In this document: positions 3,207 through 63,720 of the stretch, piece by piece | Layout of the letters: every line of letters begins with the position of its first letter | How positions within the stretch are numbered: position 1 is the first letter of the stretch | Origin: Minisyncoccota bacterium | GTDB lineage: Bacteria > Patescibacteriota > Minisyncoccia > UBA6257 > 1-14-0-10-44-23 | Reading direction: 5' to 3' | Assembly (NCBI GenBank): GCA_041389085.1 | Contig: JAWKSL010000001.1 | Span: 34,921 to 98,920, forward strand | DNA: 64,000 bases | The notes under the pieces: model-generated | What the model saw: only the letters and a program-made list of their open reading frames with translations | Databases searched by the model: none | Told to the model about the DNA's origin: nothing | Translations under genes and position numbers: made by a program

Positions 3207-6200
3207 CTAGGCTAGAGCCTCTTCGTCGTCTTCGCCAGTATCGTTGTTAAAGGCCTGATCTCCGAGGTAGTTGAGCCCTACTGGGATGGTGCGACCGATA
3301 ATAACGTTTTCCTTAAGACCGCGGAGCTTGTCTACCTTTCCGTCGAGGGCGCTTGCGATAAGAACGCGAGCGGTTTCTTGGAAGGATGCTGCTGAAAGGA
3401 AGCTTTCGGTTGAAAGTGCCACCTTGGTGATTCCCATAAGGATCTGCTTTGCCTTTGCAGGGGCTTTACCAGCCTTTTTCAGCTCTGCGTTCATTTCCTT
3501 AAACTGGCTTTTTTCGAGCACTTCACCGCGAACGAGGTCGCTGTCTCCTGCGTCTTGAATCTTTACGCGTGAAAACATTTGGCGAGCGATAAGCTCAATG
3601 TGCTTGTCGTTGATGTTTGCACCTTCGCTTGCGTACACTTGCTGTACTCCCTTTACGATTTCGCGCTCTACGTCGTCTGAACCTTTTGCTTCAAAGAGTT
3701 CGCGGAGGTCGAGGTTTCCTTCACAGAGTCTTTGCCCTGCTTTTACCTCGTCTCCTACGTTTACGAGAAGTTCGTTGCTGTTTGGAATTGGATATTCGTT
3801 TCCTTTTTCTTTCTTCGCAGCTCCTTCACGAACAACCTTAACGATACGAAGTCCTTCGCGCTGTTCGATGTCTACCACTACTCCGTCTTCCTTTGCTACG
3901 AAAGCCTTTCCTTTTGGAGGGCGTACTTCGAAAATTTCAACTACACGTGGAAGTCCGTGGGTAATGTCGGCTCCAGCAACTCCTCCGATGTGGAAGGTTC
4001 TCATGGTGAGCTGAGTTCCTGGCTCTCCGATTGACTGTGCTGCTACTACTCCTACTGCCTCTCCCTTTTCGATTGGCTTGTTCTTTCCAAGGTCGAATCC
4101 GTAACACTTTGCACAAAGTCCGTAGAGTGTGTTGCAGGTAAGTGGTGAGCGCACTACTACGTTGTCTGCTGTAGTCTTTTCTATTTCTTCTGCAACCTGG
4201 CGAGTGATGATTTCCCCTGCTTTTACGAGCGTCTTTTTACCATCCTTTACATCTGCTCCTGCAGTGCGTCCGAAGAGACGGTCTGCATAGCTTACGCCCT
4301 GAATACTGTCGCTATCTTCGCGGCGGAGTTCGATGGTTTTCTTTGTTTTACAGTCGTCTTCACGGATAACAAGGTCTTGAGACACGTCTACGAGCTTACG
4401 AGTAAGGTATCCAGCCTGCGCAGTCTTAAGAGCAGTGTCGGTGGTTCCTTTTCGAGCTCCGTGAGTTGAGTTGAAGTACTCAAGCACGTTGAACCCTTCT
4501 TTGAATGAAGACTTGATAGGAAGCTCAATGCTTTCTCCTTGTGAGTTCTGCACCATTCCTTTCATACCGGTAACCTGAGTGATCTGAGTCCAACTTCCAC
4601 GAGCTCCTGATGCAACGATTGAGTATACTGAACCGTTTTTGTCGAGTGTTTCTGGAACGAGCTTTGCCACCTCTTCTTTTGCATCGCGCCAAATTGAGGT
4701 AATTCTGGTGTGGCGCTCCTCGTCGGTAAGAAGCCCTTGGTTGAACTGATCCCAAACTTCTGCAACTTTCTTTGCTCCTTCTCCAAGAATTTCTTCTTTC
4801 TTTTCTGGAACAACAAGGTCGTCCATTGACCAGGTAATTCCTGATCTGGTTGCGTAGTGGAATCCGATCTTTTTAATAGTGTCGAGGTAGTGTGGTGCTT
4901 TATCTGCCCCGTAGGTGTCGATGATGCCTGAAACGATTTTCTTTAGCTTCTTCTTTCCTACTTCTTCGTTTACGAATGGGTATTCTACTGGAAGCGTTGA
5001 GTTAAACATAACGCGCCCTACTGAGGTTTCTACTTTTCCAATCTTTTCTCCGTAGATCTTGATGTTTGCGTTGATGTCGATGATGCCGTTTTCGTAGGCC
5101 AAAAGAGCCTCGTTTCGAGATGAGAATGCACGGCCCTCTCCCTTTGCTCCTTCTCTAATGCGGGTGAGGTAGTACACACCAAGCACGATATCTTGTGCTG
5201 GCACTACGATTGGGTCTCCGGTAGATGGTTTGAGGAGGTTTTTGCTTGAAAGCATAACTTCTCCTGCTTCACGCTGCGCTTCTGCTGAAAGTGGAAGGTG
5301 CACAGCCATCTGGTCTCCGTCGAAGTCGGCGTTAAACGCTGGACATACAAGCGGGTGAAGACGAATAGCAAAGTCTTCGATAAGGAGTGGCTCAAACGCC
5401 TGAATTCCGAGACGGTGGAGGGTTGGTGCACGGTTGAGAAGAACTTTTTTTCCGGCAATAACCTCTTCAAGGATTTCCCATACTTCTGGGCCCTTTGCGT
5501 CGATCAGCTTGTTTGAGTTCTTTACGTTGTGGGCAAGTTCGCGCTCGATTATCTTTGCGATAACAAATGGTCTAAAGAGCTCGAGAGCCATCTTCTTTGG
5601 AAGTCCACATTGGTGGAGCTTAAGCTCTGGACCTGCAACGATAACGCTTCGTCCTGAGTAGTCTACACGCTTACCAAGAAGGTTCTGGCGGAAGCGCCCT
5701 TGCTTTCCTTTAAGCATGTCTGAAATTGAACGGAGTGGGCGGCGCTGTGAGTTAAGCTGCTGACTTCCTTGGCGAGCAGAGTTGTCTACGAGTGCGTCTA
5801 CGGCTTCCTGGAGCATGCGCTTTTCGTTTATCAGAATAACCTCTGGCGCACGGAGCTCCATAAGCTTCTTAAGACGGTTGTTTCTGTTGATAACGCGGCG
5901 GTACAAGTCGTTTAAGTCGCTTGTCGCGTAACGTCCTCCGTCGAGTGCAACCATTGGGCGAAGGTCTGGTGGAATAACTGGGAGTACGGTAAGAATCATC
6001 CACTCTGGGCGCATATCTTCAGCAATCATTGAAGAAATCATCTTCAAGCGCTTAAGGTTTCGCACCTGACGAACTGAGTCTACTTTGTCCTTATCTATCT
6101 CTTTCTGAACTGCTTTTTTATATTCTTTAAGGTCTATCTTCTTAAGAATCTTTTGAATTGCTTCAGCTCCGATACCTGCCTCAAATACGTCTCCGAAACG

Positions 6201-6842: not shown

Positions 6843-9800
6843 TTATTTTTTCTTTGAACCCTTTGTCTTTGGACCTTTACTGAAGGGCTTGCCGTCTTCA
6901 TCGAGCATGATGAGGTTGAGCGAAAGCGCTTTAAGTTCGTTGAGCAACACGTTGAATGCCGCTGGTGCATTTGGGCTCTTTATTCTTTCTTGGCGGATGA
7001 TAGCCTCGTATGCACTTGCACGTCCGGTAACGTCGTCACTTTTAATAGTGAGCATTTCTTGAAGCACGGTTGGCACCGCGTATCCTTCAAGAGCCCACAC
7101 CTCCATCTCTCCGAATCTCTGTCCTCCTGACTGAGCTTTTCCTCCGAGTGGCTGCTGAGTAATAAGAGAGTATGGACCAATTGATCGCATGTGGATCTTG
7201 TCTTCTACAAGGTGGTTGAGCTTGAGCATGTAGATAATACCTACCGTAACCTTCTGATCGAATGGCTTTCCGGTGCGTCCGTCGATAAGCGTTACCTTTC
7301 CATCTGCTGGAAGCTTTGCTGCCTTGAGCTCGTCTTGAATGTCTTTCCAGCTTGCTCCTGAGAGTGATGGGGTTTGTGCTCGATATTCGAGTGTTTCAGC
7401 TGCCCATCCAAGACTGGTTTCCATGATCTGTCCGATGTTCATACGAGAAGCAACTCCGAGTGGGTTCAAAATAATGTCTACTGGAGTTCCGTCTTCCATG
7501 TGTGGCATGTCTTCTACTGGAAGAATCTTTGAGATAACACCTTTGTTTCCGTGTCGTCCTGCAAGCTTGTCTCCCACGCGCACTTTTCTAAGCTGAGCTA
7601 TCTCAACCTGAATGCGCTTAATAACTCCTGGCTCGAGCTTGTCTCCGCGCTCACGAGCAAAGATTTTTACTCCTACAACACGCCCACTCTTTCCGTGTGG
7701 CATGGTAAGACTGGTGTCTTTTACGTCGCGAGCTTTTTCACCAAAGATAGCGCGAAGAAGGCGCTCTTCACTGGTAAGTTCGCTCTCTCCTTTTGGAGAA
7801 ATCTTTCCTACGAGAATGTCGCCGCTGCGCACTTCTGCTCCGATGCGGATAATTCCCTCTTCGTCGAGGTTTTTGAGCTTGTCTTCGCTTACGTTTGGAA
7901 TGTCTGGAGTGGTTTGCTCAGGACCAAGCTTGGTGTCGCGCACGTCGATCGTAAAGTCGTCGATGTGGATTGAAGTAAAGCGATCTTCGTGTACTACGCG
8001 CTCTGAAAGAATGATAGCGTCTTCGTAGTTTGCTCCTCCCCATGAGAGGAAGGCTACGCGAAGGTTTTGTCCGAGCGCGAGCGCTCCGTTGTCGATACTT
8101 GGACCATCGGTCATTATCTGCCCCTTCTTAAGAGTCTGTCCTGGCTTCACGAGTGGCTTCTGGTTGATGGTGGTGTACTGGTTTGCTGCCTTAAACTTGG
8201 TGAGCTTGTACTCCTTCAGTGCTCCCTTTCCTTTTTCGCCCTTGAGTGAAAGCACTATTTTTGAAGCATCTACTTCCTTTACCGTAGCTTCTGATGGAGC
8301 GGTAAATACGTATCCACTGTCGAGTGCTGCTTTTTCTTCCATTCCGGTTCCTACGTATGGTGCGTCTGGAATAATTGAAGGAACTGCTTGGCGTTGCATG
8401 TTGCTTCCCATCAGTGCACGGTTTGCGTCGTCGTGCTCAAGGAATGGGATAAGTGAGGTAGCAACAGAAATAGTCTGGCGTGGTGCTACGTCGAAAAAGT
8501 CTACTTCGCTCTTCTTTACACTTACTGGCTCTCCTTTAACACGAGCGCTTACCGTTGGCTTAAGAATTTCTCCGGTGTCTTTTATTTCTGTACCTGCGTG
8601 AGCGATGATGTGGCTTTCTTCTTGGTGTGCGTTAAGCCAAGCAACTTTTCCTGTTACCTTTCCATCTTTTACTTCTAAGTATGCAGTTTCAACGAAACCA
8701 AAGTCGTTGAGGCGTGCGTAGTTTGCAAGCTGGTTTACCAACCCGATGTTTGGTCCTTCTGGGGTTTGGATTGGACAAATACGTCCGTAGTGGCTTCGGT
8801 GAACGTCGCGTACTTCGAATCCTGCGCGCTCGCGGGTAAGCCCTCCAGGACCCATCGCAGAAATACGGCGCTTGTGCTCGATTTCAGCAAGCGGGTTTAT
8901 CTGGTCCATGTACTGAGAGAGCTGTGAGCTTGAGAAGAAATCGCGGATGATTGAAATAACTGGGCGCGCGTTTACCAGCTGCACTGGGTTGAGAAGCTCT
9001 GGGTCGAGCGTACTCATTCTGTCTTGCACGATACGGCGAAGACGAGCCATTCCGATGCGGAGGCGGTTTTGAAGTTGCTCTCCTGCGGTACGAACGCGGC
9101 GGTTTCCAAGGTGGTCGATGTCGTCGCCTTCTGAAGTTGGGTCGTTGTTAAGACGGATAAGCTCGCGGATGATTGAAACGATGTCGTCCAAATCAAGAAG
9201 AAGGTTGTCTTTCTTCTTTATATTAAGTCTTTCGTTGAACTTAAATCGTCCTACTTTTGAAAGGTCGTAGCGGTCGTCGCGCTGGAACATCGCGTCGATA
9301 AGGCTCATCGCGTTTTCTGCAGTTGCGAGGTCTCCTGGGCGGATGCGGCGGTAAATTTCGATGTATGCGTCTTCTTTTGTCTTTACGCTGTCTTTCTTTA
9401 TAGTCTTTTCAATAGCACCTTCGGTGTCGATGTCTGCAAAAAGCTTTTGCATTTGGTCAGTTTCATTGAGACCAAAAATGCGAAGCAAGGTGCTTACTGG
9501 AGCTTTTCGGCGGCGGTCGATCTTAACGCTGAGCGATCCATCTGCGTCGGTTTCAAACTCGAGCCATGCTCCACGGCTTGGGATAACCTTTGCGCTAAAG
9601 CGCTTCTTTCCGCGTACGAGTGAGGCGCTGTAGTAAACACCTGGTGAGCGGATAAGCTGACTGATAACTACCTTTTCGTTTCCGTTGATAATAAAGGTAC
9701 CGCGGTCGGTCATAAGTGGAAGGTCACCAAAGTACACTTCCTGCTCTTTTGTTTCTTTTGTTTGTCCGTTTACCAGCTTTACCTTTACGCGAAGAGGAGC

Positions 9801-11336: not shown

Positions 11337-12445
11337 CTAAAAAATAGAGCTGTGGATTGGGGCTATTTTAGGCGCATGTGCAAAGCGTTTGGCGCTTTGG
11401 ACTATGCCGACTAGTACTGCGTTCATAAGAATGCTCGACCCTCCGTAGCTAAAGAATGGGAAGGTAACTCCAATAACTGGCAGCATCCCCGTAGCAGACC
11501 CGACGTTGATAATAAACTGCACCAAAAACATAAATGCCACTCCAAGACAAAGCAGGCGGTAAAAGTTTGATTCGGAATTCATACCTATCTGCACAATTTT
11601 GAAAAGCATGGTGAAAAATGCGGCGAGCACTACTACTGCACCAAATAGTCCCCACTTTCTGAGAGCGCGGCAAAAATAAAGTCTGTTTCTGGCTCAGGGA
11701 GAAATCCGAGCTGCGTCTGCGTCCCCTGCCGAAATCCTTTTCCAAAAAATCCACCGCTGCCAATCGCTATCTTGGCTTGAATAGTTGAGTAGTTTACTCC
11801 GAGCGGGTCGTAGTCTGGCTGGAAAAATCCGATGATTCTTTCTTTCTGATATGGAGCGAATACAAAAAACCACGCGATAATCACGAGTAGTATGCCAACT
11901 CCGAGCCCGATTAAAATATGTTTTGGCCTAAGCCCGCTTACCAAAAGAAAGCCGATCCAGATTCCGGTGAGTACAATCATCGTTCCCATGTCTGGCTGAA
12001 GGAAGATAAAAATTGCCGGTAGTAGGTAGTAAAAGAATGATCGAGCTATATTGCTGAGCTTGGCAATACCAATGTGGTGACGGGCAAAATAGTAGGCAAG
12101 AATGATAATGAGAGCCACCTTCATAAGCTCGGCTACCTGGAACTGTACAGGGCCGATTACGAGCCAGCTGCGCGTATTCCTTATCACTGGCGCAAAAAGG
12201 CTTGTAAGGGCCAAAATAAGCAAAGAAACGAGGTATATAGCCCCAATAACGATTGGACGCGAGCTCAATGTACGCCAGTTTATATGGGCGCAGAAAATCA
12301 TGAGCGCGAGAGCAAGGATGACGGAAACTACCTGCTGAATTACAATCGGGCCTCCGATGCTAATGATCATCACAAGGCTGGCAAGCATGAGCGTCCAGGT
12401 AGCGCAGTAAAGTACTATGTCTTGTCTATTGAGAAAGGCGAGCAT
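11337..12445 (-). pseudogene. SEDS family peptidoglycan glycosyltransferase (FtsW/RodA) split into two ORFs (11633..12445 and 11337..11630) by a single-base frameshift in an A-run near 11655-11662
   Basis: Upstream ORF ends ..[16 protein letters not shown]. The alternative frame continues ..[24 protein letters not shown] (canonical SEDS C-terminus). One extra A in 'tcagaaag' restores a single 368-aa protein. Confidence 0.8.
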
Positions 12446-13230
12446 TATCTGGTTTGTATTTCAACATCCAGTATCGGCTCAAGTACGATATTTTGCAAAA
12501 CTGCCGGACTGACCGGAGTTATAAGCTCAAAGCTCTCTTCTTCAAACCCTGCAATGCTTTCAAGCTGGGTTTGAGAAACTGCGACGACTGCATCGTTGGC
12601 GTCGCGGTAGCGCGCTATTATTTCTGCACTTCGTAGGGTTTGTGCATTTTCATTTCTGAGTAGGCCGGTAAGGATGATGCGTGGCTTCAGCTCGCTTTCG
12701 TCTACAACCACTACCTCTTGGTTTCTAACTTCATACTTTGGGCGGGCGAAACTTTCGATTGGTTGCCACTGGCGCTCAGTCACCACCGCACTGATTGAAA
12801 CTATATCGCTTGCGGCAACGCTTATGTTTGGTATAAGAACTCCTTTTCTTTCTGATGGGTAGATAAAGGTTTGTTCGCTCAGGTTTAGCGCCGCTCCACT
12901 TTTGCGCTCTACGGTGACTTCAATGTTTACTTCAGTAGCACCGTAGCTGGCATTTGGGTTTTCAAGGCTTATGTAAATGCTTGAGCGCTCACTATCTTGC
13001 GCTGGAATTGCTATAGCGCCACTTGCAGTTAGCTCCTTTAGGGTGTTTATCGCGCAGTCTTGGCAGGAGCCTCCGCAGTCGATACCAGTTTCGTCTTGGT
13101 TTTTCTTTCCATCAGTACAGCTTGGAGCTGGCTTGAGCGTAGCTTGGTAAATTAAGAATCCGACACCTAAAAGGACGAGTAGGTAGAGGGCTCCGTAGAT
13201 AAGTTGCTTTATGATGCGCCTGGAACTCAT
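12445..13230 (-). CDS. Membrane-anchored hypothetical protein with a Cys-bracketed acidic motif ([22 protein letters not shown]) and beta-rich extracellular domains
   Basis: N-terminal TM helix. Overlaps the SEDS start by 1 nt (operon). No family assignment possible. Confidence 0.5.
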
Positions 13231-13315
13231 ATATGAATTATTTTAGCAGAAAGAAAGACAAGATTTTAGACGTTAGATTTTTGATTTTTGAAGACGCTGA
13301 ACTATACGAAACAGG

Positions 13316-13344
13316 TTTGACATAGCGCCCTTTATGTTTTATAG
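13316..13344 (+). promoter_or_regulatory. Sigma70-like promoter TTGACA-17-TATAGC for GC-rich cassette A
   Basis: Read directly. Equivalent element upstream of cassette B. Confidence 0.5.
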
Positions 13345-13348
13345 CTAT

Positions 13349-13436
13349 AGGAGTTTTTTGAAAGCTATTTGCTCGGTTTTTGGCCGCACGTTTTTGCTCT
13401 TTTTGAGAGTAGAAATGTGCGGCTAAGAGGGCCGCA
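13349..13436 (+). promoter_or_regulatory. Conserved structured leader (copy A), ggagttttttgaa...gccgcacRtttttgctcttttTgagagtagRaatgtgcggctaagagggccgc, with alternative hairpins
   Basis: About 85 % identical to 14197-14269. 9-bp stem GCCGCACAU/AUGUGCGGC. The shared GCGGC can alternatively pair with the downstream GCCGC. Confidence 0.5.
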
Positions 13437-13511
13437 AATATGGGCTACGAACACCTTGGCACGATGCTAAGTTAGTAGATGCCCGATAGACTCCGAAGAA
13501 AGGTTTCTATC

Positions 13512-14078
13512 ATGCAAGGTAAAAAGATCACAATCGATCAGGGCAAGGAAGCTCTTGATCTTCTGAGCCGGCTCAGCCCGGAGCAGTACCAGGAGAGACG
13601 CGCTTGGTTGGCGCGCATTAGCGATCCTCGCTTTAACCCCAACATGCTCAGGCTATTCTACCCCTTCAAGGCTAATCAACCGTTCCAGTGGAACTGCCGC
13701 GGAGTTGAGCGCGAAGGAGCTGTCTGCGAGGCGTCTGTCACCATCGCCGATCTTGAGCTCGTCCCCTTCCACAAGGATGGTGAGAAGTGGATCAGTGGCG
13801 AAGAGATGCGCACTCGCGCTGCCGACGAGGAGGCCTACCCGGGGTGCTCAGGCTTCGGCCAGCACCAGGCCGAGGACATTCTCGAGCGAGCCTCTGAGCT
13901 GCCCGAGGAGTTCCGTAAGTACGTGATCGTCTTCGCGGACTCCGTTCTTTTGGACGGCGTCTGTCATCGATACGTTCCGTTCCTCGCCTGGGATGGCGGC
14001 CGGTGGCAGCTGAACTGGCGCTGGATCGATAGCAGCTTCGAACGCGTCTGCCGATTCCCTCGGCTGCGGCGTGAGTAG
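13512..14078 (+). CDS. Hypothetical protein (188 aa) in high-GC cassette A, distantly related in its C-terminal half to the cassette B protein
   Basis: Long GC3-rich ORF and ATG at 13512 after an AAAGG SD-like site. The ORF-track start at 13479 is an upstream extension. No known domain recognised. Confidence 0.6.
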   Translation: MQGKKITIDQGKEALDLLSRLSPEQYQERRAWLARISDPRFNPNMLRLFYPFKANQPFQWNCRGVEREGAVCEASVTIADLELVPFHKDGEKWISGEEMRTRAADEEAYPGCSGFGQHQAEDILERASELPEEFRKYVIVFADSVLLDGVCHRYVPFLAWDGGRWQLNWRWIDSSFERVCRFPRLRRE

Positions 14079-14096
14079 GAGCCGCCCACAACAATG

Positions 14097-14139
14097 ACCC
14101 CGCGCGATGCAGTGCATCGCGCGGGGTTTGTTCTTTTTT
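14097..14139 (+). terminator. Rho-independent terminator (ccccgcgcgatgcagtgcatcgcgcgggg + tttgttctttttt) of cassette A
   Basis: GC-rich hairpin followed by a T-run. Near-identical to 14950-14989. Confidence 0.8.
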
Positions 14140-14162
14140 ACCGCTCTAGAGATCTGATTGGT

Positions 14163-14191
14163 TTGACTTAAGGTGCTTTATATTTTATAAC
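14163..14191 (+). promoter_or_regulatory. Sigma70-like promoter TTGACT-17-TATAAC for cassette B
   Basis: Read directly. Confidence 0.5.
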
Positions 14192-14196
14192 TATGG

Positions 14197-14269
14197 GAGT
14201 TTTTTGAAGATTTTTGCCGCACATTTTTGCTCTTTTTTGAGAGTAGGAATGTGCGGCTAAGAGGGCCGC
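14197..14269 (+). promoter_or_regulatory. Conserved structured leader (copy B)
   Basis: Matches 13349-13436. Confidence 0.5.
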
Positions 14270-14329
14270 GTTTGAACTGTCTGGGGCTGCATCGGTGTAG
14301 ATGTGGCTGGAGACAGTGGAGCAACAATC

Positions 14330-14926
14330 ATGTCTACAGACACCCGTTTAGATCTTGGAGCCGAACTCGACCGAAAGGTGCGAGAGAAGGGTGGCACGCG
14401 CGAAAATATCGCGCTCGTACTCAGGGAGCGGCCTGACATCATTGATGCTTGTGCCGCCCTGATTGTCGACGCAGCGCGTGAGACGAAGGTCAAGATTGAG
14501 CTCTCGATCGTCGTCGGCGAGGACGAGACTTTCGATAGTCTCGTAGCGGCCGGGCATTACGGCTCGAAGGGCGACTGGGTCACCGGAGAGCAGTTCCCTG
14601 TTCGTCCGAGCCAGCCTGGCGAGCGCCAGCTCGTGCTCTTGCACTTCGCCCGCGTCGTCTCCTCCGAGAATGCAATCGATGAGGCAGCCAAGCAGGGCTT
14701 GGAGCGTCCTACCTACGAAGACGCCTTGCGCTTCGGTGCTCAGCACCCTGAGGTGCAGTGCCAGTTCCCGGTCGTTTTCCTTCATGAACCCCTGCCGGAC
14801 GCGTACGACGGCCCGAGCGTCCTCTGCCTCGATTGTCGCGCCTCGGGGCGCGACCTGGACTACCGCTGGTTCGACGGCGGTTGGGGTTGCCTCTACCGCT
14901 TCGTCTTCGTCCGCCCTACAGCGTGA
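14330..14926 (+). CDS. Hypothetical protein (198 aa) in high-GC cassette B
   Basis: GC3-rich ORF with ATG at 14330 and GGAG 9 nt upstream. The 3' end and terminator module are shared with cassette A (gcgtgagtaggagccgNccacaacaatgacccc...). Confidence 0.6.
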   Translation: MSTDTRLDLGAELDRKVREKGGTRENIALVLRERPDIIDACAALIVDAARETKVKIELSIVVGEDETFDSLVAAGHYGSKGDWVTGEQFPVRPSQPGERQLVLLHFARVVSSENAIDEAAKQGLERPTYEDALRFGAQHPEVQCQFPVVFLHEPLPDAYDGPSVLCLDCRASGRDLDYRWFDGGWGCLYRFVFVRPTA

Positions 14927-14949
14927 GTAGGAGCCGACCACAACAATGA

Positions 14950-14989
14950 CCCCGCGCGATGCAGTGCCTCGCGCGGGGTTTGTTCTTTG
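14950..14989 (+). terminator. Rho-independent terminator of cassette B (one-base variant of the cassette A terminator)
   Basis: Hairpin plus T-run. Confidence 0.8.
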
Positions 14990-14992
14990 CTG

Positions 14993-15024
14993 CTCTAGAG
15001 TTATCTCTAGAGATAACTCTAGAG
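14993..15024. repeat. Perfect 32-bp palindrome ctctagagttatctctagagataactctagag between cassette B and the mraY stop
   Basis: Read directly. Related CTCTAGAG-containing palindromes lie at 14147-14160 and 62196-62215. Confidence 0.7.
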
Positions 15025-15030
15025 AGAGAT

Positions 15031-16083
15031 TTAGAAGAACTTGTTGAGGAAGAAGACTACGAGCCCCATACCCACGCTCATAACTGAAACTATCCAAAAG
15101 CGCATCGTTACTCGTGTTTCGTGCCAGCCGAGAGCTTCGAAATGGTGGTGAATTGGCGCTGAAAGGAAGACTTTCTTCTTCCTTATTTTTTTACTTAAAA
15201 CTTGGATGATGACTGAGCCGCTTTCGATGATGAAAATTGGGGCGAAAAGTGGAAGAAGGAGTGCTGTGTCTGTAAGCATGGCGATAACTCCGATAGTAAT
15301 TCCAAGCGGCATTGACCCTGTGTCGCCCATAAAGAAGCGGGCTGGATAAATGTTGAACCAAAGAAAGGCAAGAAGAGCGCCGATAATAACTCCGCCGAGC
15401 ACTGCGAGGTCGTAGCGACCGAGTGAGAAAGCTACAACGGTAAGGGCTACGTAGGTAAAGAGCATAACTCCTCCCGCAAGGCCGTCGAGGCCGTCTGTTT
15501 CGTTTGCTGAAAAGGCGCTGGCTACGAGCACAAAGATGAAAAGTGGAATGTACCAAACTCCGATGTTTACGTTTCCGAAAAACGGAATATTGAGTGTGTC
15601 CCAATCGAGCCTAAAGTAGAACCAGAGTGCTCCGAGGGTTGAAAAGATAGTGTAGACAAGAAGGCGGTGGCTCATCTTGAGCCCTCCCCCTTTTGGGCCG
15701 ATACCGCGAATACCAAACACGTCGTCTACATAGCCTACGAGGGCTGCGAGGAAAAGTGCTGCGAGTGGAAGGTATGTTTGCGCTCTATCGACAAAGTTTA
15801 GGTAGTCCCAGAAGCCGCCAAGCATTTTTGAAAGAAGGAAAATAGCTACTGCAAGAGAGACTACTGTCGCCCACACGATAATTCCTCCCATGGTCGGCGT
15901 GCCTACCTTGCCTTTGTGAAGGCTGTGAAATACTGGAGCGTCTTTTTTAGAACGAATTTGCTTTTTTGCGTTTTGAGTGTTGAGAAAGCTTAAAACTGGA
16001 CCGGTTATTAAAAATGCCATCACAAAAGCTAGAAGTGATAGCCCTATAACGCGAACTGCTTGTAAAACGGTAATACTAATCAT
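15031..16083 (-). CDS. mraY: Phospho-N-acetylmuramoyl-pentapeptide transferase
   Basis: Polytopic membrane protein with DDxxG/NETDGLDGLAGG and SAPIHHHFE motifs. Confidence 0.95.
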   Translation of the reverse strand: MISITVLQAVRVIGLSLLAFVMAFLITGPVLSFLNTQNAKKQIRSKKDAPVFHSLHKGKVGTPTMGGIIVWATVVSLAVAIFLLSKMLGGFWDYLNFVDRAQTYLPLAALFLAALVGYVDDVFGIRGIGPKGGGLKMSHRLLVYTIFSTLGALWFYFRLDWDTLNIPFFGNVNIGVWYIPLFIFVLVASAFSANETDGLDGLAGGVMLFTYVALTVVAFSLGRYDLAVLGGVIIGALLAFLWFNIYPARFFMGDTGSMPLGITIGVIAMLTDTALLLPLFAPIFIIESGSVIIQVLSKKIRKKKVFLSAPIHHHFEALGWHETRVTMRFWIVSVMSVGMGLVVFFLNKFF

Positions 16084-60334: not shown

Positions 60335-60892
60335 ATGGACCCAATTCAAACTCAGCAAGGGCCAGTACAACCTGCTGCCCCTTTGCAAGCTGCTCCGAGC
60401 GCACCAATGCCTGTAGCAGAATCTGCTCCGCATAAGCGCGGAGGGCATATCGTTCTCTTTATAATTATTTTTATACTTGGCATTGTGCTCGGTGGCTTCC
60501 TTGGCTACCTCTGGCGAGGCATGAAAATAGACGAAAGCCTTATTTATGATCAGGCAGCTCTGGAGAGTGCTGCTGCGGAGGCTCACTCTCGTGTTCTCTC
60601 TGAGATTGAAGCAGAAAAATCCGCTGCTTTAAAAAGTGCAATTGGGGAGGTCCTCAGTGTTGAAGCGACCAGTATTCGTATACGGTTTTCTCGAGAAGGG
60701 ATTGGGGAAGATTTGCTACTACTTACCGATGAGAATACAAAATTTTCTTCTTTTGATAACTCAACAGATATCCCAACTCCGGTTGAAATAACTGCTGCAG
60801 ATATAGTGGTGGGAGATACAGTAACTGCCAACTTTAATGAAAGTGTCGAACAAAACCTAGAACTATACGCATATGAAATCATTAAGATATAA
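60335..60892 (+). CDS. Single-pass membrane protein with Pro/Ala/Gln-rich N-terminus, hypothetical
   Basis: One TM (IVLFIIIFILGIVLGGFLGYLW). No motif. Confidence 0.45.
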   Translation: MDPIQTQQGPVQPAAPLQAAPSAPMPVAESAPHKRGGHIVLFIIIFILGIVLGGFLGYLWRGMKIDESLIYDQAALESAAAEAHSRVLSEIEAEKSAALKSAIGEVLSVEATSIRIRFSREGIGEDLLLLTDENTKFSSFDNSTDIPTPVEITAADIVVGDTVTANFNESVEQNLELYAYEIIKI

Positions 60893-62168
60893 AAAGAAAA
60901 AGCAGCACCCACTCGCTGTAGCGCTCTGCCTACTCTTTCTTTCCTTTGCAGCCTTCGTTGTAGTTAAAAACGCTTCAGCAGTAGAGCTCAATGGTCAGGC
61001 AGACTTTCGCCTTTCCATTCAACTTAACGATAAAACCTGTGGTCAGCAAAATGGCACTCCGCGATCTGCTGGATTTTTAAGTCAAGGAGCCGGATATGCT
61101 CAATCGGATTGGGCGACTGACTCAAATGGTTTTGATCCTGACTGTGCTCGTCTAGGCCTTGAATCTCAAGGTGGAAACACTGTTCCGACTACCGACTTTC
61201 GGGTATGTATACAAGTAAGTGATGATATTGCTTATAGCTTTATGAGCCAAAGAGTAGTTAATGTGAACCAAGTCGGTATTGAGCGTTGCACCCCATATGT
61301 TAGTGAGGGTGGTGGTTGGAGTGAGTGGGCTTACGATGGAGGTACTGGGTCCGATCGAGCATTTGATCCTGATGCTGTCCGTCTTCGAATAGAAGCTAAT
61401 AGCACTCCTTTAGAGGGTATTGAAATTGATAATATGAGATTCGGCATTCAACTCTCTGATGATCAATGTACGGGCCAGTTTGGAGCGCCGGAGTTTACTC
61501 CTTGGCTTGTAGATGTTGGGATGAATAGCGCCTCTGAGCACTGGTCAAACTGGGCAAAGGATGGGGGGCCAAACTACAAAGACCCTGACTGTGTACGCAT
61601 AAAAATGGAAGTCATCACAAACCCAGTTGGTAATAATGAGGACGAAGAGCTTCCTGACACTCCTGCATGTTCTGATGGTATAGACAACGACAGTGATGGT
61701 TCAGCTGACTATCCAAGCGATCCTGGATGCGCCAGCGCTGACGACAATAGTGAAGCTGATAATGCTCAGAATGCTTGCGAAAACGGCGAAGACGATGATG
61801 GAGATGGCCTTGTAGACATGAACGACCCTGGCTGTGCTAGCCCAAGCGATGATGACGAGACCGACCCTATTGCCTGCAACTTTGCTGCAAACCCAACTTC
61901 GCTCGTAAAAGGAATTGGTACGAGTAAACTTACCTGGGACTGCCGACACAGCGACGGAACAGTTATGACCGGTACCGTATCTATTGTTGACGACAACGCT
62001 GCGCAAACATTTGCTGGCCTTGGAAACAACCTTGGTGCAGCAGGGTCTGTAAACGTTGCTCCTGAACAGACTACACGCTTTACTCTCAGCCCATCTCTCT
62101 CAGGACTTATTCCTGAAACAGCAACGGTGCGTATAGAAAACAGTAGCTTCGATGAAGATATTCCGTAG
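60873..62168 (+). CDS. Secreted protein with three copies of a ~85-aa novel repeat followed by Cys-bracketed acidic (TSP3-like) repeats
   Basis: Signal peptide. Repeats DFRLSIQLNDKTCG.. / DFRVCIQVSDD.. / NMRFGIQLSDDQCTG... CSDGIDNDSDGSADYPSDPGC and CENGEDDDGDGLVDMNDPGC. Confidence 0.55.
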   Translation: MKSLRYKKKKQHPLAVALCLLFLSFAAFVVVKNASAVELNGQADFRLSIQLNDKTCGQQNGTPRSAGFLSQGAGYAQSDWATDSNGFDPDCARLGLESQGGNTVPTTDFRVCIQVSDDIAYSFMSQRVVNVNQVGIERCTPYVSEGGGWSEWAYDGGTGSDRAFDPDAVRLRIEANSTPLEGIEIDNMRFGIQLSDDQCTGQFGAPEFTPWLVDVGMNSASEHWSNWAKDGGPNYKDPDCVRIKMEVITNPVGNNEDEELPDTPACSDGIDNDSDGSADYPSDPGCASADDNSEADNAQNACENGEDDDGDGLVDMNDPGCASPSDDDETDPIACNFAANPTSLVKGIGTSKLTWDCRHSDGTVMTGTVSIVDDNAAQTFAGLGNNLGAAGSVNVAPEQTTRFTLSPSLSGLIPETATVRIENSSFDEDIP

Positions 62169-62189: not shown

Positions 62190-62221
62190 AAAAAACTCTA
62201 GAGTTAACTCTAGAGTTTTTT
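62190..62221. terminator. Bidirectional terminator aaaaaaCTCTAGAGTTAACTCTAGAGtttttt
   Basis: Perfect 10-bp stem flanked by an A-run and a T-run between convergent genes. Confidence 0.8.
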
Positions 62222-62222
62222 G

Positions 62223-63461
62223 TTACGCGCTTATCTTTGGATCTTTTTTCGAGAAAACTGTGATTGATCTGTTTTCTTTTTTGAATATCTCCTTCGCTAA
62301 ACTCATCACCTTCTCTGGTTTTATATTTTTTAGCTCTTTGAGGAATTTCTCACCTGTCGCTCCCCTTCCATGAATTGCAATATTTTTGTACCACCAAATT
62401 CTTTCTGTAATGTCTGTATCATCCGAAAGCGTAGATGTGGTTAATGAGTTTTTGTGGTTTTCGAGCTCACCTTTGTTGAGATCTTTCTTTATTTTTTCTA
62501 GCTCTTGATTTATGAGGCTTATAGCTTTCTCTGCATTCTTGTTTTCAGCACTAAACCTAAATAAAACTGTTGATACATCAGCATACATGTCGAAATAGTC
62601 ACTTACCCAATAGGTTAGATTCTCTTCTATGCGAAGCTTTTTGTTCAATCTGCCAATCCAACTTCCTGCTAGCGCGCTCATTAGGGTTGCTGTAAGGACC
62701 TGCTTTTCTACCTCCTTTATCTGAGGCATTCTAAAGCTCACTGCGATTATCGAATTGCTAATATCTTTTTTTACAAATGAATATGCCTTTGGCTCTTTAA
62801 ACTTTTCCTTCCTTGCTTTTAAGGCTTTCCCCTTTATTACTCCTGCTGTTAGCTTTTCTAGCTCCTTTTCTATTTTCTTTTGATTGAAGTTTCCTGTTAT
62901 TACAAACACCGTGTTTGAGAGGGTGTAGTACCTTTTATACCAATCCTGAATATCCTTCTTGCTTATCGCGCGGATACTTTTTTTACTCCCGAGAACACTT
63001 CTAAACGATGACATTGGAAATAAATTCTCCAATGCAACTTCTGCTATCTGATCCTCTGGAGAATTTTCTCTGCTCGCTTGCTCGTCGATTATCGCCCCTG
63101 CCTCCTCTCTTACGTCTTGCTCTGTAAATTCACTGCTAAACATTCCATCTACAAAGACCTCTAGTGATTCACTTGTAGCCTCTTTTCTTTGAAGGTGATA
63201 GTAGTAGCTGTATTCGCTTCCAGTGTATGCGTTAAATTGAATTCCCTTTTCTGCAAGAAAATTAAGCCTATCTTGATAGATTGGAAACATTTTTGTTTTT
63301 TTCATGAGCACGTGCTCAAAGAAATGAGCTAATCCCTCTTTCCCTTTTATATCTTCGCGTGCTCCTACATTTACCCACGCAGAAATAAGCGAAAGCTTTT
63401 CACTTGGCTCGTTTACAAAAATTACTCTTGCACCTGATTTTAATGTTTTTTCGTTTTTCAT
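62223..63461 (-). CDS. Peptidase M16 family protein (second copy). Start at ATG 63461; the ORF-track N-terminal extension through the GC-rich segment is rejected.
   Basis: HFFEH (HxxEH) motif. The N-terminus MKNEKTLKSGARVIFVNEP.. is M16-typical. Confidence 0.75.
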   Translation of the reverse strand: MKNEKTLKSGARVIFVNEPSEKLSLISAWVNVGAREDIKGKEGLAHFFEHVLMKKTKMFPIYQDRLNFLAEKGIQFNAYTGSEYSYYYHLQRKEATSESLEVFVDGMFSSEFTEQDVREEAGAIIDEQASRENSPEDQIAEVALENLFPMSSFRSVLGSKKSIRAISKKDIQDWYKRYYTLSNTVFVITGNFNQKKIEKELEKLTAGVIKGKALKARKEKFKEPKAYSFVKKDISNSIIAVSFRMPQIKEVEKQVLTATLMSALAGSWIGRLNKKLRIEENLTYWVSDYFDMYADVSTVLFRFSAENKNAEKAISLINQELEKIKKDLNKGELENHKNSLTTSTLSDDTDITERIWWYKNIAIHGRGATGEKFLKELKNIKPEKVMSLAKEIFKKENRSITVFSKKDPKISA

Positions 63462-63497
63462 AAAAAGATGAGCGCACCCTTCAAGGAAGGGGCGCTC
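63462..63497 (-). terminator. Rho-independent terminator/attenuator (gagcgcccc..ggggtgcgctc + aucuuuuu) ending at the M16 start codon
   Basis: Hairpin plus U-run on the minus strand between the small-peptide gene and the M16 ATG. Confidence 0.55.
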
Positions 63498-63511
63498 TGT
63501 TGTTGCCCGGG

Positions 63512-63628
63512 CTACTTCCCGCGCTTGCCGGAGCCGCCGCCCGAGCTTCCGCCCTTGCCGCCGCGCTGGCCGCCGGAACCACTCCGGCCCTTGCCGCTCC
63601 CACCGGAGCCCTTGCTCTTCTTGCTCAT
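63512..63628 (-). CDS. High-GC tiny Gly-rich basic peptide (38 aa) upstream of the second M16 peptidase
   Basis: ATG 63628 preceded by AGAGGAGG. MSKKSKGSGGSGKGRSGSGGQRGGKGGSSGGGSGKRGK. Below the ORF-track size cut-off. Confidence 0.45.
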   Translation of the reverse strand: MSKKSKGSGGSGKGRSGSGGQRGGKGGSSGGGSGKRGK

Positions 63629-63720
63629 CACGCCTCCTCTCTTGGGGGTTTACTACCTGCAGACTATCTACCGGTAGTGATGGCACCCCTATATTCAGTT
63701 TTATTTACTTATTTGTCAAG

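Follow-up and report, generated by a model that had tools for sequence, protein, structure and literature searches.

A tandem pair of likely DGR target genes with conserved leader and 3' modules in a Patescibacteria genome

What are two GC-rich genes with near-identical flanks doing inside a string of cell-wall genes in a Patescibacteria (CPR) genome? The pair consists of two plus-strand units (13317-14151 and 14163-15000) located between minus-strand genes in a 64-kb window, the term used here for the whole stretch of DNA analysed. The left neighbour encodes a 261-aa FxLYD-domain protein (12445-13230, minus strand), with a SEDS gene and YceG further out, while the right neighbours are MraY (15031-16083, minus strand) followed by D-Ala-D-Ala carboxypeptidase and ScpB/A. 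All eight genes scanned around the pair are cell-wall or segregation genes, none of them a recombinase gene. The GC content of ORF1 and ORF2 is 0.60 and 0.62, respectively, compared with 0.463 for the window, and jumps sharply at both borders of the pair (ca. 13.29 and 15.03 kb). A preliminary description had reported two antisense units with conserved ends and a GC content of ca. 62 % against a host value of ca. 46 %, all of which is borne out. It interpreted the units as variable cargo of a cassette array or mobile unit with foreign GC and assigned no function to either protein. Here, we find that the two independent transcription units likely encode small, apparently soluble proteins with a C-type-lectin-like (CLec) fold, belonging to two related Patescibacteria families of variable proteins whose members are hypermutated by diversity-generating retroelements (DGRs) in related bacteria.

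13512..14078, + strand: ORF1 (R3B52_00210), DGR variable-protein family 1, 188 aa, C-terminus RRE*
14330..14926, + strand: ORF2 (R3B52_00215), DGR variable-protein family 2, C-type-lectin/FGE fold, 198 aa, C-terminus PTA*

Alignment of unit 1 with unit 2 shows that the 3' modules are 91.7 % identical over 84 nt, the promoters 76 % and the leader hairpin regions 89 % with a 13-nt indel. A 48-mer of the 3' module is present in exactly two copies in the window, with 0 expected. No sharing is found in the start-proximal part of the leader. Neither unit is bracketed by terminal inverted or direct repeats.

Homologues in DGR loci and predicted variable repeats

Homologues of both proteins with 52-67 % protein identity to the window ORFs are found in other Patescibacteria contigs directly upstream of a template repeat (TR), Avd and reverse transcriptase (RT). 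The RT comes immediately after the ORF1 homologues in L003 and L004-6 and after the ORF2 homologues in L007-9, L010/L018 and L020/21/23, with apparently only an RT remnant in L020/L023. Avd was detected in L003, L007 and L018 and is encoded antisense, while the TR was explicitly confirmed in L003, L004, L007 and L010. In these relatives, the last ca. 125-140 nt of the gene, the variable repeat (VR), are copied in the downstream TR. All mismatches between the TR and VR cores are located at TR adenines (12 sites in L003, 24 in L004, 24 in L007 and 25 in L010), and non-adenine mismatches in the same four loci are confined to positions outside the repeat ends. The adenine-specific mismatch, a hallmark of DGRs, is a property shown for homologous loci and not for this genome. 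No RT is present within 4-6 kb of the family members in L016, L017/L022, L036 and L001. Overall, the genomic context of the homologues places two proteins previously left without a function in DGR target families.

The same loci account for the unusual composition of the pair. Every homologue examined has a GC content 7-16 points above that of its own locus and, where an RT is present, 15-25 points above that of the adjacent RT gene (0.39-0.46 GC). High GC is a trait of these target-gene families and, being found in every locus examined, provides no evidence of the foreign origin proposed in the preliminary description.

No Pfam, transmembrane or other conserved domain is recognisable in either ORF. 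The two proteins show weak similarity in their C-terminal halves (BLASTP, E 0.007) and their families are homologous across the C-terminal 77 columns (hhalign 94.8 %, E 5e-8), in agreement with the distant C-terminal relationship noted before. Each protein possesses its own helical N-terminal half. The ORF2 model (pLDDT 91) adopts the C-type-lectin/FGE fold and resembles, among others, the DGR protein TvpA, while the ORF1 model is of medium confidence only. A C-type-lectin fold carrying a C-terminal VR, as modeled here, is consistent with membership among DGR targets. Neither ORF is disrupted, and the residues of the VR scaffold are retained. The family fold also occurs with an invariant C-terminus, as a fusion to MOSC domains.

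Positional homology allows one VR to be predicted for each gene.

13940..14078, + strand: VR1, predicted variable repeat, last ca. 46 codons of ORF1
14792..14926, + strand: VR2, predicted variable repeat of ORF2

VR1 corresponds in position to the VRs of L004 (4783-4920) and L003 (6467-6596) and VR2 to those of L007 (6589-6713) and L010 (7717-7842). VR1 has the constant end TGCCGATTCCCTCGGCTGCGG and VR2 the constant end TACCGCTTCGTCTTCGTCCGC; in both cases, GCGTGAGTAG and a GC hairpin of 13-15 bp come next. Comparison with L011, an independent Logan assembly carrying the same tandem pair and modules, locates the divergence within these repeats. In ORF1, codons 141-180 differ in 24 of 40 residues, compared with 2-3 of 20 for flanking blocks, and codon positions 1 and 2 carry most of the changes. 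In codons 161-180 of ORF2, positions 1 and 2 account for 15 differences and position 3 for only 2. The variable codons of the window and L011 VRs align with AAC positions in the TRs of relatives, and a degenerate pattern derived from the VRs and TRs of both families matches the window VRs as well as VR and TR in L003-L010. That VR codons changed at a much higher rate than the remainder of the gene indicates DGR activity after the split from L011 in at least one lineage. VR1 and VR2 differ from each other at many non-adenine positions and by an indel, and two different TRs would therefore be required. A need for two TRs is unusual and counts against the explanation favored here.

The machinery itself was searched for across the window, which reaches 13 kb beyond the pair on the left and 49 kb on the right. 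Using two CPR DGR RTs and two Avd proteins as tblastn queries, only chance matches (E > 1) were obtained in the 64 kb. An adenine-tolerant scan allowing 20 % non-adenine mismatches revealed no TR-like copy of VR1 or VR2 in the window, and none of the best 120 of ca. 8000 related RTs originates from this contig. A DGR acting on the pair would be encoded outside the window, where it would reverse-transcribe TR RNA and misincorporate opposite adenines. The resulting cDNA would replace the VR and thereby rewrite the ligand-binding face of each protein.

Promoters, leader RNA and 3' modules

The 5' part shared by the two units appears to combine a sigma-70-type promoter with a 19-25 bp RNA hairpin. 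A second conserved hairpin, particular to each gene family, would follow a short distance ahead of the ribosome-binding site.

13317..13345, + strand: unit 1 promoter, -35 TTGACA (13317-13322), 17-nt spacer, -10 TATAGC (13340-13345)
14163..14191, + strand: unit 2 promoter, -35 TTGACT (14163-14168), 17-nt spacer, -10 TATAAC (14186-14191)
13377..13429, + strand: long leader hairpin copy 1, 25-bp RNA stem with G.U pairs
14211..14262, + strand: long leader hairpin copy 2, core stem 14216-14257, 19 bp
13418..13436, + strand: small alternative hairpin UGCGGCU-AAGAG-GGCCGCA, overlapping the 3' arm of the long stem
13442..13483, + strand: ORF1-type start-proximal leader element, GGGCUACGAAC, internal hairpin, UUAGUAGAUGCCC
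14276..14317, + strand: ORF2-type start-proximal hairpin, 7-bp and 9-bp helices, GG/GG internal loop, hexaloop GGUGUA

The promoters named in the preliminary description are present, the unit 1 promoter aligning with TTGACA-N17/18-TATAAT upstream of homologous genes in L011, L007, L010 and L017. Both -10 boxes align with the TATAAT of relatives but are not called in a strict sigma-70 scan because they end in C.

Copy 1 of the long hairpin has an MFE of -38.6 kcal/mol (z = -7.3) and is detected by covariance model R1 with 86 bits on the plus and 33 bits on the minus strand. The corresponding values for copy 2 are -31.9 kcal/mol, z = -5.6 and 84 bits. In an alignment of six leaders, 95 % of cells are paired and compensatory changes occur in 9 of 24 pairs, a level reached by 0 of 500 shuffles. 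The long hairpin is absent from the leaders of L011 unit 2, L010, L016, L003 and L004, and the hairpin model identifies no further copies in the window or 30 other loci beyond the leaders of these two families. The small hairpin folds with -11.9 kcal/mol when the 3' fragment is considered alone. All six leaders with the long hairpin can form a counterpart of 6-8 bp, whose pairing partners have changed in sequence. The mutually exclusive hairpins proposed before can therefore both form, but their stability is very unequal, the long stem reaching -32 to -39 kcal/mol and its alternative about -11 to -12 kcal/mol. The small hairpin lacks a U-run, lies 75 nt ahead of the start codon of ORF1, the distance for its unit 2 counterpart being 60 nt, and leaves the ribosome-binding site uncovered.

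Closer to the start codons, the ORF2-type hairpin was analyzed in seven distinct leaders (window, L011, L007, L010, L016, L019 and L020), where 97.3 % of cells are paired and compensatory changes affect 9 of 16 pairs. None of 500 shuffles reaches this level and slid controls pair at 33-46 %. The hairpin is found in L039 too. Leader covariation in relatives, suggested earlier as a check, is thus observed for both the long stem and this hairpin. The sequence frame of the ORF1-type element is kept in L011, L004 and L036. Its inner hairpin may vary by compensatory substitutions in 5 pairs, with support being weak since four sequences were available. A cmscan of 12500-16000 against Rfam (E ≤ 1) returned no match above threshold. 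The two sub-threshold matches are sodF_sRNA (31 bits vs a gathering score of 46), which spans the terminator and palindrome on the minus strand, and mir-96 (21 bits vs 65).

Each gene terminates within its 3' module.

14069..14151, + strand: 3' module copy 1, GCGTGAGTAG (TAG 14076-14078), 17-nt spacer, hairpin with T-run, CTCTAGAG 14144-14151
14921..15000, + strand: 3' module copy 2, GCGTGAGTAG (TGA 14924-14926), spacer, hairpin with T-run, CTCTAGAG
14993..15024, strand not assigned: perfect 32-nt palindrome CTCTAGAGTTATCTCTAGAGATAACTCTAGAG between unit 2 and the mraY stop codon

The common GCGTGAGTAG supplies the stop codons TAG to ORF1 and TGA to ORF2 in different frames, as previously noted. 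It coincides with the canonical VR end of the clade, which reads CGCAAGTAG in relatives. In copy 1, the GC-rich hairpin at 14096-14128 consists of 15 pairs (11 G-C) followed by TGTTCTTTTT. The equivalent fold of copy 2 at 14948-14980 is followed by TTTGTTCTTTG. The hairpin loop is AGU and larger in copy 2. A GC-rich stem-loop with a U-run at the 3' end of a gene corresponds to an intrinsic (rho-independent) terminator, in line with the preliminary description. GC-rich hairpins with a T-run are found after the VR in every locus inspected, and the copy 1 hairpin resembles the post-VR hairpin of L039, GACCCCGCGCGATTGCATCGCACGGGGTC. The 3' module is thus the constant end of the variable repeat joined to a GC-rich hairpin and terminator. 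In phage BPP-1, retrohoming is efficient only if an inverted repeat follows closely after the VR (PMC3240598; PMC5758913). By analogy, the module most likely acts both as an intrinsic terminator and as an IMH-like hairpin/cruciform target-recognition end, a dual role that would explain why near-identical modules are found at both targets. The 3' hairpin is also fully explicable as a plain terminator. The 32-nt palindrome probably serves this genome as a terminator or repeat rather than being part of the DGR targets as such. A similar CTCTAGAG palindrome with A-run and T-run flanks is located at 62190-62221 between convergent genes.

Between the window and L011, the 3' modules are 96 % and 91 % identical while adjacent third codon positions are 79 % and 60 % identical. 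The start-proximal leaders (94 % and 85 %) and the long hairpin (88 %) also exceed third codon positions. The conserved ends are real, and these non-coding modules are under selection, being more conserved than synonymous sites. For the promoter and leader elements, control of mRNA processing, stability or translation is the most likely role. One conceivable route is cleavage of the long stem by RNase III, after which the 3' fragment would refold into the small 5' hairpin.

Alternative explanations and implications

The two genes could be orphaned former targets, DGR-derived but left without a working DGR and now static paralogues, with flanks reflecting co-regulation, a common terminator or gene conversion. 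The lack of RT, Avd and TR in the window, the relatives without a nearby RT, the apparent RT remnant in L020/L023 and the invariant C-terminus of MOSC fusions are all compatible with this, as is the P0013 protein, which is identical across three samples and so gives no sign of ongoing variation. Against it stand the intact ORFs with conserved scaffold residues, the fast VR divergence from L011 at codon positions 1 and 2, and the 91-96 % identity of VR end and 3' module, above that of synonymous sites. In addition, DGRs are very common in CPR genomes (PMC8144416) and ca. 250 kb of contig extend beyond the window. We regard orphaned targets as possible but doubtful. A still more tentative proposal extends the favored DGR-target reading: the pair would be served in trans by a remote DGR (or two TRs), and the ca. 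80-nt 3' module would be a portable address label attached to two lectin-fold genes in two frames, with new targets recruited by module transfer. In parallel, the long hairpin and the start-proximal hairpins of each family would represent undescribed cis-regulatory motifs dedicated to CPR targets, acting for example through RNase III processing.

A cassette array or set of non-autonomous mobile units of foreign origin, inserted into the cell-wall gene string and holding unrelated, interchangeable genes between conserved ends, would fit the near-identical ends around dissimilar coding sequences, the stop codon used in two frames and the GC jump at both borders. The long hairpin is also present in unit 2 of the window but not of L011, as expected of a movable module. 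However, the cargos are homologous to each other, and in L011, the only other carrier of the 3' module, both families recur in identical order. Searching JGI metagenomes and IMG/VR with a 23-mer of the module gave 0 matches, so that the different cargo anticipated in other genomes was not found. The restriction of the long hairpin to leaders of these two families, the absence of recombinases among the immediate neighbours and of bracketing repeats, and the high GC maintained even beside low-GC RT genes make mobile cassettes very improbable. An assembly chimera or very recent horizontal insertion could produce the sharp GC step and the orientation of the pair opposite to all neighbouring genes. 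The tandem pair itself is not an assembly chimera since the independent L011 carries the same pair and modules, and L012 and L013 from other runs likewise reproduce it. The equal GC excess of homologues within many other CPR contigs and promoters of the same type as in relatives also argue against such an event, which we consider hardly credible. Similarly, a leader functioning as a ligand-sensing riboswitch or transcription attenuator that alternates between two exclusive hairpins would be in keeping with both helices being possible in 6/6 leaders and with the covariation in the long stem. Yet a 20-30 kcal/mol gap separates the helices and the 5' arm is transcribed first, making a ligand-driven switch implausible. 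The stem is uninterrupted without an internal aptamer-like junction, Rfam yields only the two chance-level matches, the small hairpin neither precedes a U-run nor covers the ribosome-binding site, and several leaders lack the long hairpin altogether. The riboswitch-like function suggested earlier is highly unlikely.

With the DGR-target assignment, two oddly composed hypothetical proteins become recognisable hypermutation targets, and conserved ends around a GC island do not necessarily mark mobile DNA in a CPR genome. DGR targets are a known kind of system and the DGR paradigm is unchanged by these findings, while the flanking RNA elements are undescribed and have no Rfam match. The covariation-supported 5'-UTR hairpins offer a first handle on the control of DGR-target expression in reduced genomes. 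If the cognate DGR is located elsewhere in the genome, the pair would represent non-adjacent CPR targets needing two templates, and surveys on short contigs cannot see non-adjacent targets, as stated explicitly (PMC8144416).

Comparison with known systems

The pair resembles the Patescibacteria/CPR targets of 'clade 2' DGRs (Roux et al., 2021, PMC8144416; Wu et al., 2018, PMC5758913) in encoding small, domain-less proteins with the VR at the extreme C-terminus and in having homologues directly upstream of TR, Avd and RT with adenine-only mismatches. In contrast to CPR DGRs, for which mostly one target is reported (PMC5758913), two families are arranged in tandem here, no RT, Avd or TR is found within 13 kb and 49 kb, and near-identical promoter/hairpin and 3' modules are common to both targets. 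Solved structures with a related fold, TvpA (2y3c), Mtd (1yu0), AvpA (5ioo) and the FGE/PvdO/EgtB C-terminal fold, likewise carry variable residues in the C-terminal part. These proteins share only 2-13 % sequence identity with the window proteins, which are much shorter (188 and 198 aa) and possess their own helical N-terminal halves, with the ORF1 model being of medium confidence.

Similar to the BPP-1 IMH and hairpin (Guo et al., 2011, PMC3240598), a GC-rich inverted repeat is located 17-21 nt past the stop codon, within the published range of 4-34 bp, and is preceded by a constant GC-rich VR end common to both targets. The stem is longer (13-15 bp vs 7-10 bp) and the AGU loop departs from the 4-nt GRNA consensus of phage DGR hairpins (PMC3240598). 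The hairpin is also followed by a T-run and hence is an ordinary intrinsic terminator as well, any role in retrohoming being putative. Targets far from the RT and several paralogous CLec targets per genome are known from Treponema denticola and Legionella (Wu et al., 2018, PMC5758913). All VRs in those organisms match one TR, whereas VR1 and VR2 cannot derive from a single TR.

The long leader hairpins of E. coli pnp and rnc are processed by RNase III. They are unrelated in sequence to the leaders described here, and the resemblance is one of form only: an uninterrupted 5' UTR stem of ca. 20-25 bp is located well upstream of the ribosome-binding site, and the 3' fragment could form a small 5'-terminal hairpin once the 5' arm is removed.

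Two plus-strand units and their neighbourhood

A 1.8-kb stretch bounded by two minus-strand genes holds two plus-strand units, whose GC-rich genes we call ORF1 (unit 1) and ORF2 (unit 2). The features are as follows.

12445-13230, minus strand: gene for a 261-aa FxLYD-domain protein (left neighbour)
13317-13345, plus strand: -35/-10 pair of unit 1
13377-13429, plus strand: 25-bp leader hairpin of unit 1
13512-14078, plus strand: ORF1, 188 aa, preceded by a further structured leader
14069-14151, plus strand: 3' module of unit 1
14163-14191, plus strand: -35/-10 pair of unit 2
14211-14262, plus strand: leader hairpin of unit 2
14276-14317, plus strand: hairpin of unit 2 next to the start codon, different from unit 1
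14330-14926, plus strand: ORF2, 198 aa
14921-15000, plus strand: 3' module of unit 2
15031-16083, minus strand: MraY (right neighbour)

The two units are 76% identical in the promoter, 89% in the hairpin region and 92% in the 3' module, and alignment between the coding regions of ORF1 and ORF2 is nearly absent (BLASTP E 0.007). The common GCGTGAGTAG supplies the stop codon TAG in ORF1 and, in another frame, TGA in ORF2. GC content is 0.60 in ORF1 and 0.62 in ORF2 compared with 0.463 for the whole window. Coordinates, identities and GC content thus bear out the preliminary description of two units with conserved ends, differing genes of high GC content and stops in two frames.

The FxLYD gene lies directly upstream of the pair as part of a cell-wall gene string and encodes a small, probably membrane-anchored protein, with an NCBIfam FxLYD domain at residues 186-244 just above the cut-off (E 1.5e-5) and no Pfam match. 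The SEDS (RodA/FtsW) gene (11337-12445, minus strand) is split. A 270-aa ORF (11633-12445) aligns to positions 36-262 of the 356-position Pfam profile and a 97-aa ORF in a different frame (11337-11630) matches rodA/ftsW profile positions 274-354/357, so that this essential cell-wall gene may carry a frameshift or a sequencing error or be a pseudogene. The motif CTCTAGAG is present in 6 copies, compared with 1.3 expected, at sites including 14144-14151, 14993-15024 and 62190-62221. Three copies spaced 12 nt apart form a perfect 32-nt palindrome adjoining the mraY stop codon, and two further copies form AAAAAACTCTAGAGTTAACTCTAGAGTTTTTT between the convergent ORFs 60873-62168 (plus strand) and 62223-63686 (minus strand). 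These palindromes resemble a bidirectional terminator or a palindromic repeat peculiar to this genome.

ORF1 and ORF2 as members of retroelement target families

Neither protein has a match in Pfam, PHROGs or NCBIfam. A large protein collection yielded 10 proteins related to ORF1 and 22 related to ORF2, all without names and mostly from Patescibacteria metagenomes. In a profile-profile comparison the two families match along 77 C-terminal columns (94.8%, E 5e-8). It is the genomic context of the relatives that is decisive for the predicted identity of ORF1 and ORF2 as target families of diversity-generating retroelements (DGRs), and structure prediction agrees with this assignment. The preliminary view that no function could be assigned to either protein is thereby superseded.

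In the numbered loci L003 and L004-6, ORF1 relatives are followed, about 0.4-1 kb downstream, by a direct repeat of the last 125-140 nt of the gene itself. The same arrangement is found for ORF2 relatives in L007-9 and L010/L018, and L020/21/23 carry a reverse transcriptase (RT) downstream. The repeat is followed by an antisense gene for the accessory protein Avd (L003, L007, L018) and then by the RT. In the four loci checked base by base, all mismatches in the repeat core fall on adenines of the downstream copy (24, 12, 24 and 25 sites), non-adenine mismatches being confined to the repeat ends. Adenine-specific mutagenesis in the transfer from a template repeat (TR) to a variable repeat (VR) is the defining signature of DGRs (PMC3240598, PMC5758913). 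Adenine-only core mismatches in a context of TR, Avd and RT therefore indicate that the loci of the relatives bear this signature. About 8000 related RTs were retrieved by a profile search starting from four RTs of CPR DGRs. Members of both families are also found without a nearby RT (L001, L016, L017/L022, L036).

Further features of these loci were observed. The cassettes of L003, L007 and L018 are ordered as target with VR, a conserved non-coding RNA-like spacer of about 350-390 nt, TR, antisense Avd (at 7087-7422, ~7260-7560 and 5090-5365, respectively) and RT. L020 (~800-2200) and L023 (~1100-2270) hold two tandem lectin-fold targets and then an apparently truncated RT, whose match is limited to RT residues ~158-340 and spread over two frames; these loci may represent a two-target DGR in decay. 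In proteins P0027-P0033, the C-terminal domain of the ORF2 family is found with the invariant sequence ELGLEGFDDRWGREYRFAFVR; of these, P0027-P0029 and P0033 (~347 aa) are fusions to a C-terminal MOSC domain (PF03473). These proteins share the fold and are apparently relatives unconnected with DGRs.

In the window, VRs are predicted at 13940-14078 (VR1, in ORF1) and 14792-14926 (VR2, in ORF2). Both C-terminal regions match a degenerate pattern that was derived from VRs and TRs of both families and matches VR and TR alike in the DGR loci of the relatives; in a collection of species-representative genomes, two other Patescibacteria contigs matched. By alignment, the variable codons of the window VRs correspond to AAC positions of the relatives' TRs. 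Amino acid differences from the closest orthologues, those in L011, cluster in the predicted VRs of both proteins. In ORF1, 24 of the 40 residues at codons 141-180 differ, whereas the blocks on either side have 2-3 differences per 20 residues, and codons 161-180 of ORF2 show 15 differences at codon positions 1 and 2 against 2 at position 3.

The common ends around different genes had previously been read as a cassette array or as non-autonomous mobile units. This reading is not supported, as both genes belong to DGR target families linked in their C-terminal 77 columns and an exact 23-mer of the 3' module has no match in JGI metagenomes or IMG/VR. Nor is there support for the tandem pair being an assembly chimera, as the pair and its modules recur in the independent Logan assembly L011 and in L012 and L013, which come from other runs.

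Leader elements and the 3' module

The part of the leader common to both units consists of the promoter and a long hairpin. As RNA, the hairpin has 19-25 uninterrupted pairs, several of them G.U, with energies of -32 to -39 kcal/mol and z of -5.6 to -7.3, and its covariance model scores 84-88 bits on the plus strand compared with 23-33 bits on the minus strand. It lies upstream of ORF1-type genes (L011 unit 1, L037/L038) and ORF2-type genes (L007, L039) and was not found in the orthologous leaders of L011 unit 2, L010/L018, L016, L003, L004 and L036. In an alignment of six leaders, paired cells make up 95% and compensatory changes occur in 9 of the 24 long-stem pairs, a result equalled by none of 500 shuffles (slid controls pair at 34-50%). 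The six-leader alignment was fitted to the model and is therefore biased towards structure; aligning five of the leaders with MAFFT led to a similar result. No additional copies were seen in the window or other loci that would make the hairpin a dispersed repeat.

Other elements are specific to one family. The ORF2-type element (14276-14317) comprises two helices on either side of an internal GG/GG loop and has a conserved hexaloop, RGYGUA. Its structure is strongly supported by covariation: among 7 distinct sequences 97% of positions pair, 9 of 16 pairs are compensatory and no shuffle out of 500 does as well (slid controls 33-46%). For the ORF1-type element (13442-13483) only four sequences could be compared; their sequence frame is conserved and the inner hairpin co-varies. 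The proposed Rfam comparison matched no family for any leader element. A minus-strand Rfam match to sodF_sRNA (14943-15029) is below the gathering score and accounted for by two adjacent hairpins. A leader peptide starting at the ATG after the AAGAGG-like loop of unit 1 was rejected; an indel in L004 breaks its frame, and L036 and unit 2 lack the ATG.

Mutually exclusive hairpins, as first proposed, are possible in all six leaders. An alternative hairpin of 6-8 bp (-8 to -13 kcal/mol), incompatible with the long stem, can form from the stem's 3' arm together with the 12-20 nt that follow it, with varying partners (GCGGC with GCCGC, GCCGU or GUCGC; GCGGUC with GACUGC). The riboswitch that had been read into this arrangement is not supported, since both the energy gap between the helices and the transcription order speak against switching by a ligand. 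Speculatively, RNA processing would be a better fit: once the long stem had been cleaved or unwound, the newly made 5' end would be capped by the small hairpin.

VRs of the relatives end in ...CGCAAGTAG, where TR/VR homology ceases and the TR reads AACTAC or AACTCT. GCGTGAGTAG occupies the equivalent place in the window and L011; after it come a short spacer and then a GC-rich hairpin of 13-15 bp with a T-run. A hairpin and T-run of this type lies 3' of the VR in all loci inspected, and that of L039 (GACCCCGCGCGATTGCATCGCACGGGGTC) is recognizably the window sequence. The modules of the window and L011 share 96% (unit 1) and 91% (unit 2) identity, compared with 79% and 60% at the third positions of codons in the coding sequence next to them, which indicates constraint beyond stem pairing. 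Intrinsic termination is the simplest function. In phage BPP-1, efficient retrohoming needs both the constant VR end, IMH, and an inverted repeat, rich in GC, that lies 4-34 bp past the VR (PMC3240598). The window units likewise have a GC-rich inverted repeat after the VR, beside the constant end, and we infer from the BPP-1 requirement that the module may also be a DGR target-recognition end, although its hairpin loop lies outside the published GRNA consensus. Such a role would explain why the same sequence is kept on two otherwise different targets.

GC excess, the absent retroelement and known systems

The high GC content had been called foreign to the host. We compared target genes in L001, L003, L004, L007, L010, L016, L017 and the window (13512-14926). 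At every homologous locus examined, they exceed the rest of their own contig by 7-16 GC points and, where an RT is present, the adjacent RT gene by 15-25 points (targets 0.46-0.68, loci 0.40-0.52, RTs 0.39-0.46). The GC island is therefore a trait of the gene families and not evidence of recent import.

Searches of the 64-kb window by tblastn found no RT or Avd, and an adenine-tolerant scan found no TR-like copy of VR1 or VR2; apparent matches near 48.2 and 50.8 kb are A-rich low-complexity stretches. A single TR cannot serve both VRs, given many non-adenine differences in the constant end and an indel needed for alignment. The odds are roughly even between present-day diversification of the pair by a remote DGR in the remaining ~250 kb of the contig and a pair of orphaned former targets that are no longer diversified. 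The enrichment of CPR genomes in DGRs (PMC8144416) and the strong conservation of VR ends and modules tilt the balance slightly towards a remote DGR.

CPR DGRs whose targets are small, domain-less proteins of lectin fold are well known (PMC8144416, PMC5758913), and the window locus belongs to this known class of CPR DGR target loci. Tandem two-target loci with an RT exist (L020/L023). Unusual here are the tandem arrangement of two different target families with no adjacent retroelement, the near-identical 5' and 3' non-coding modules on both genes, the conserved and undescribed leader RNA motifs and the consistent GC excess of the target genes.
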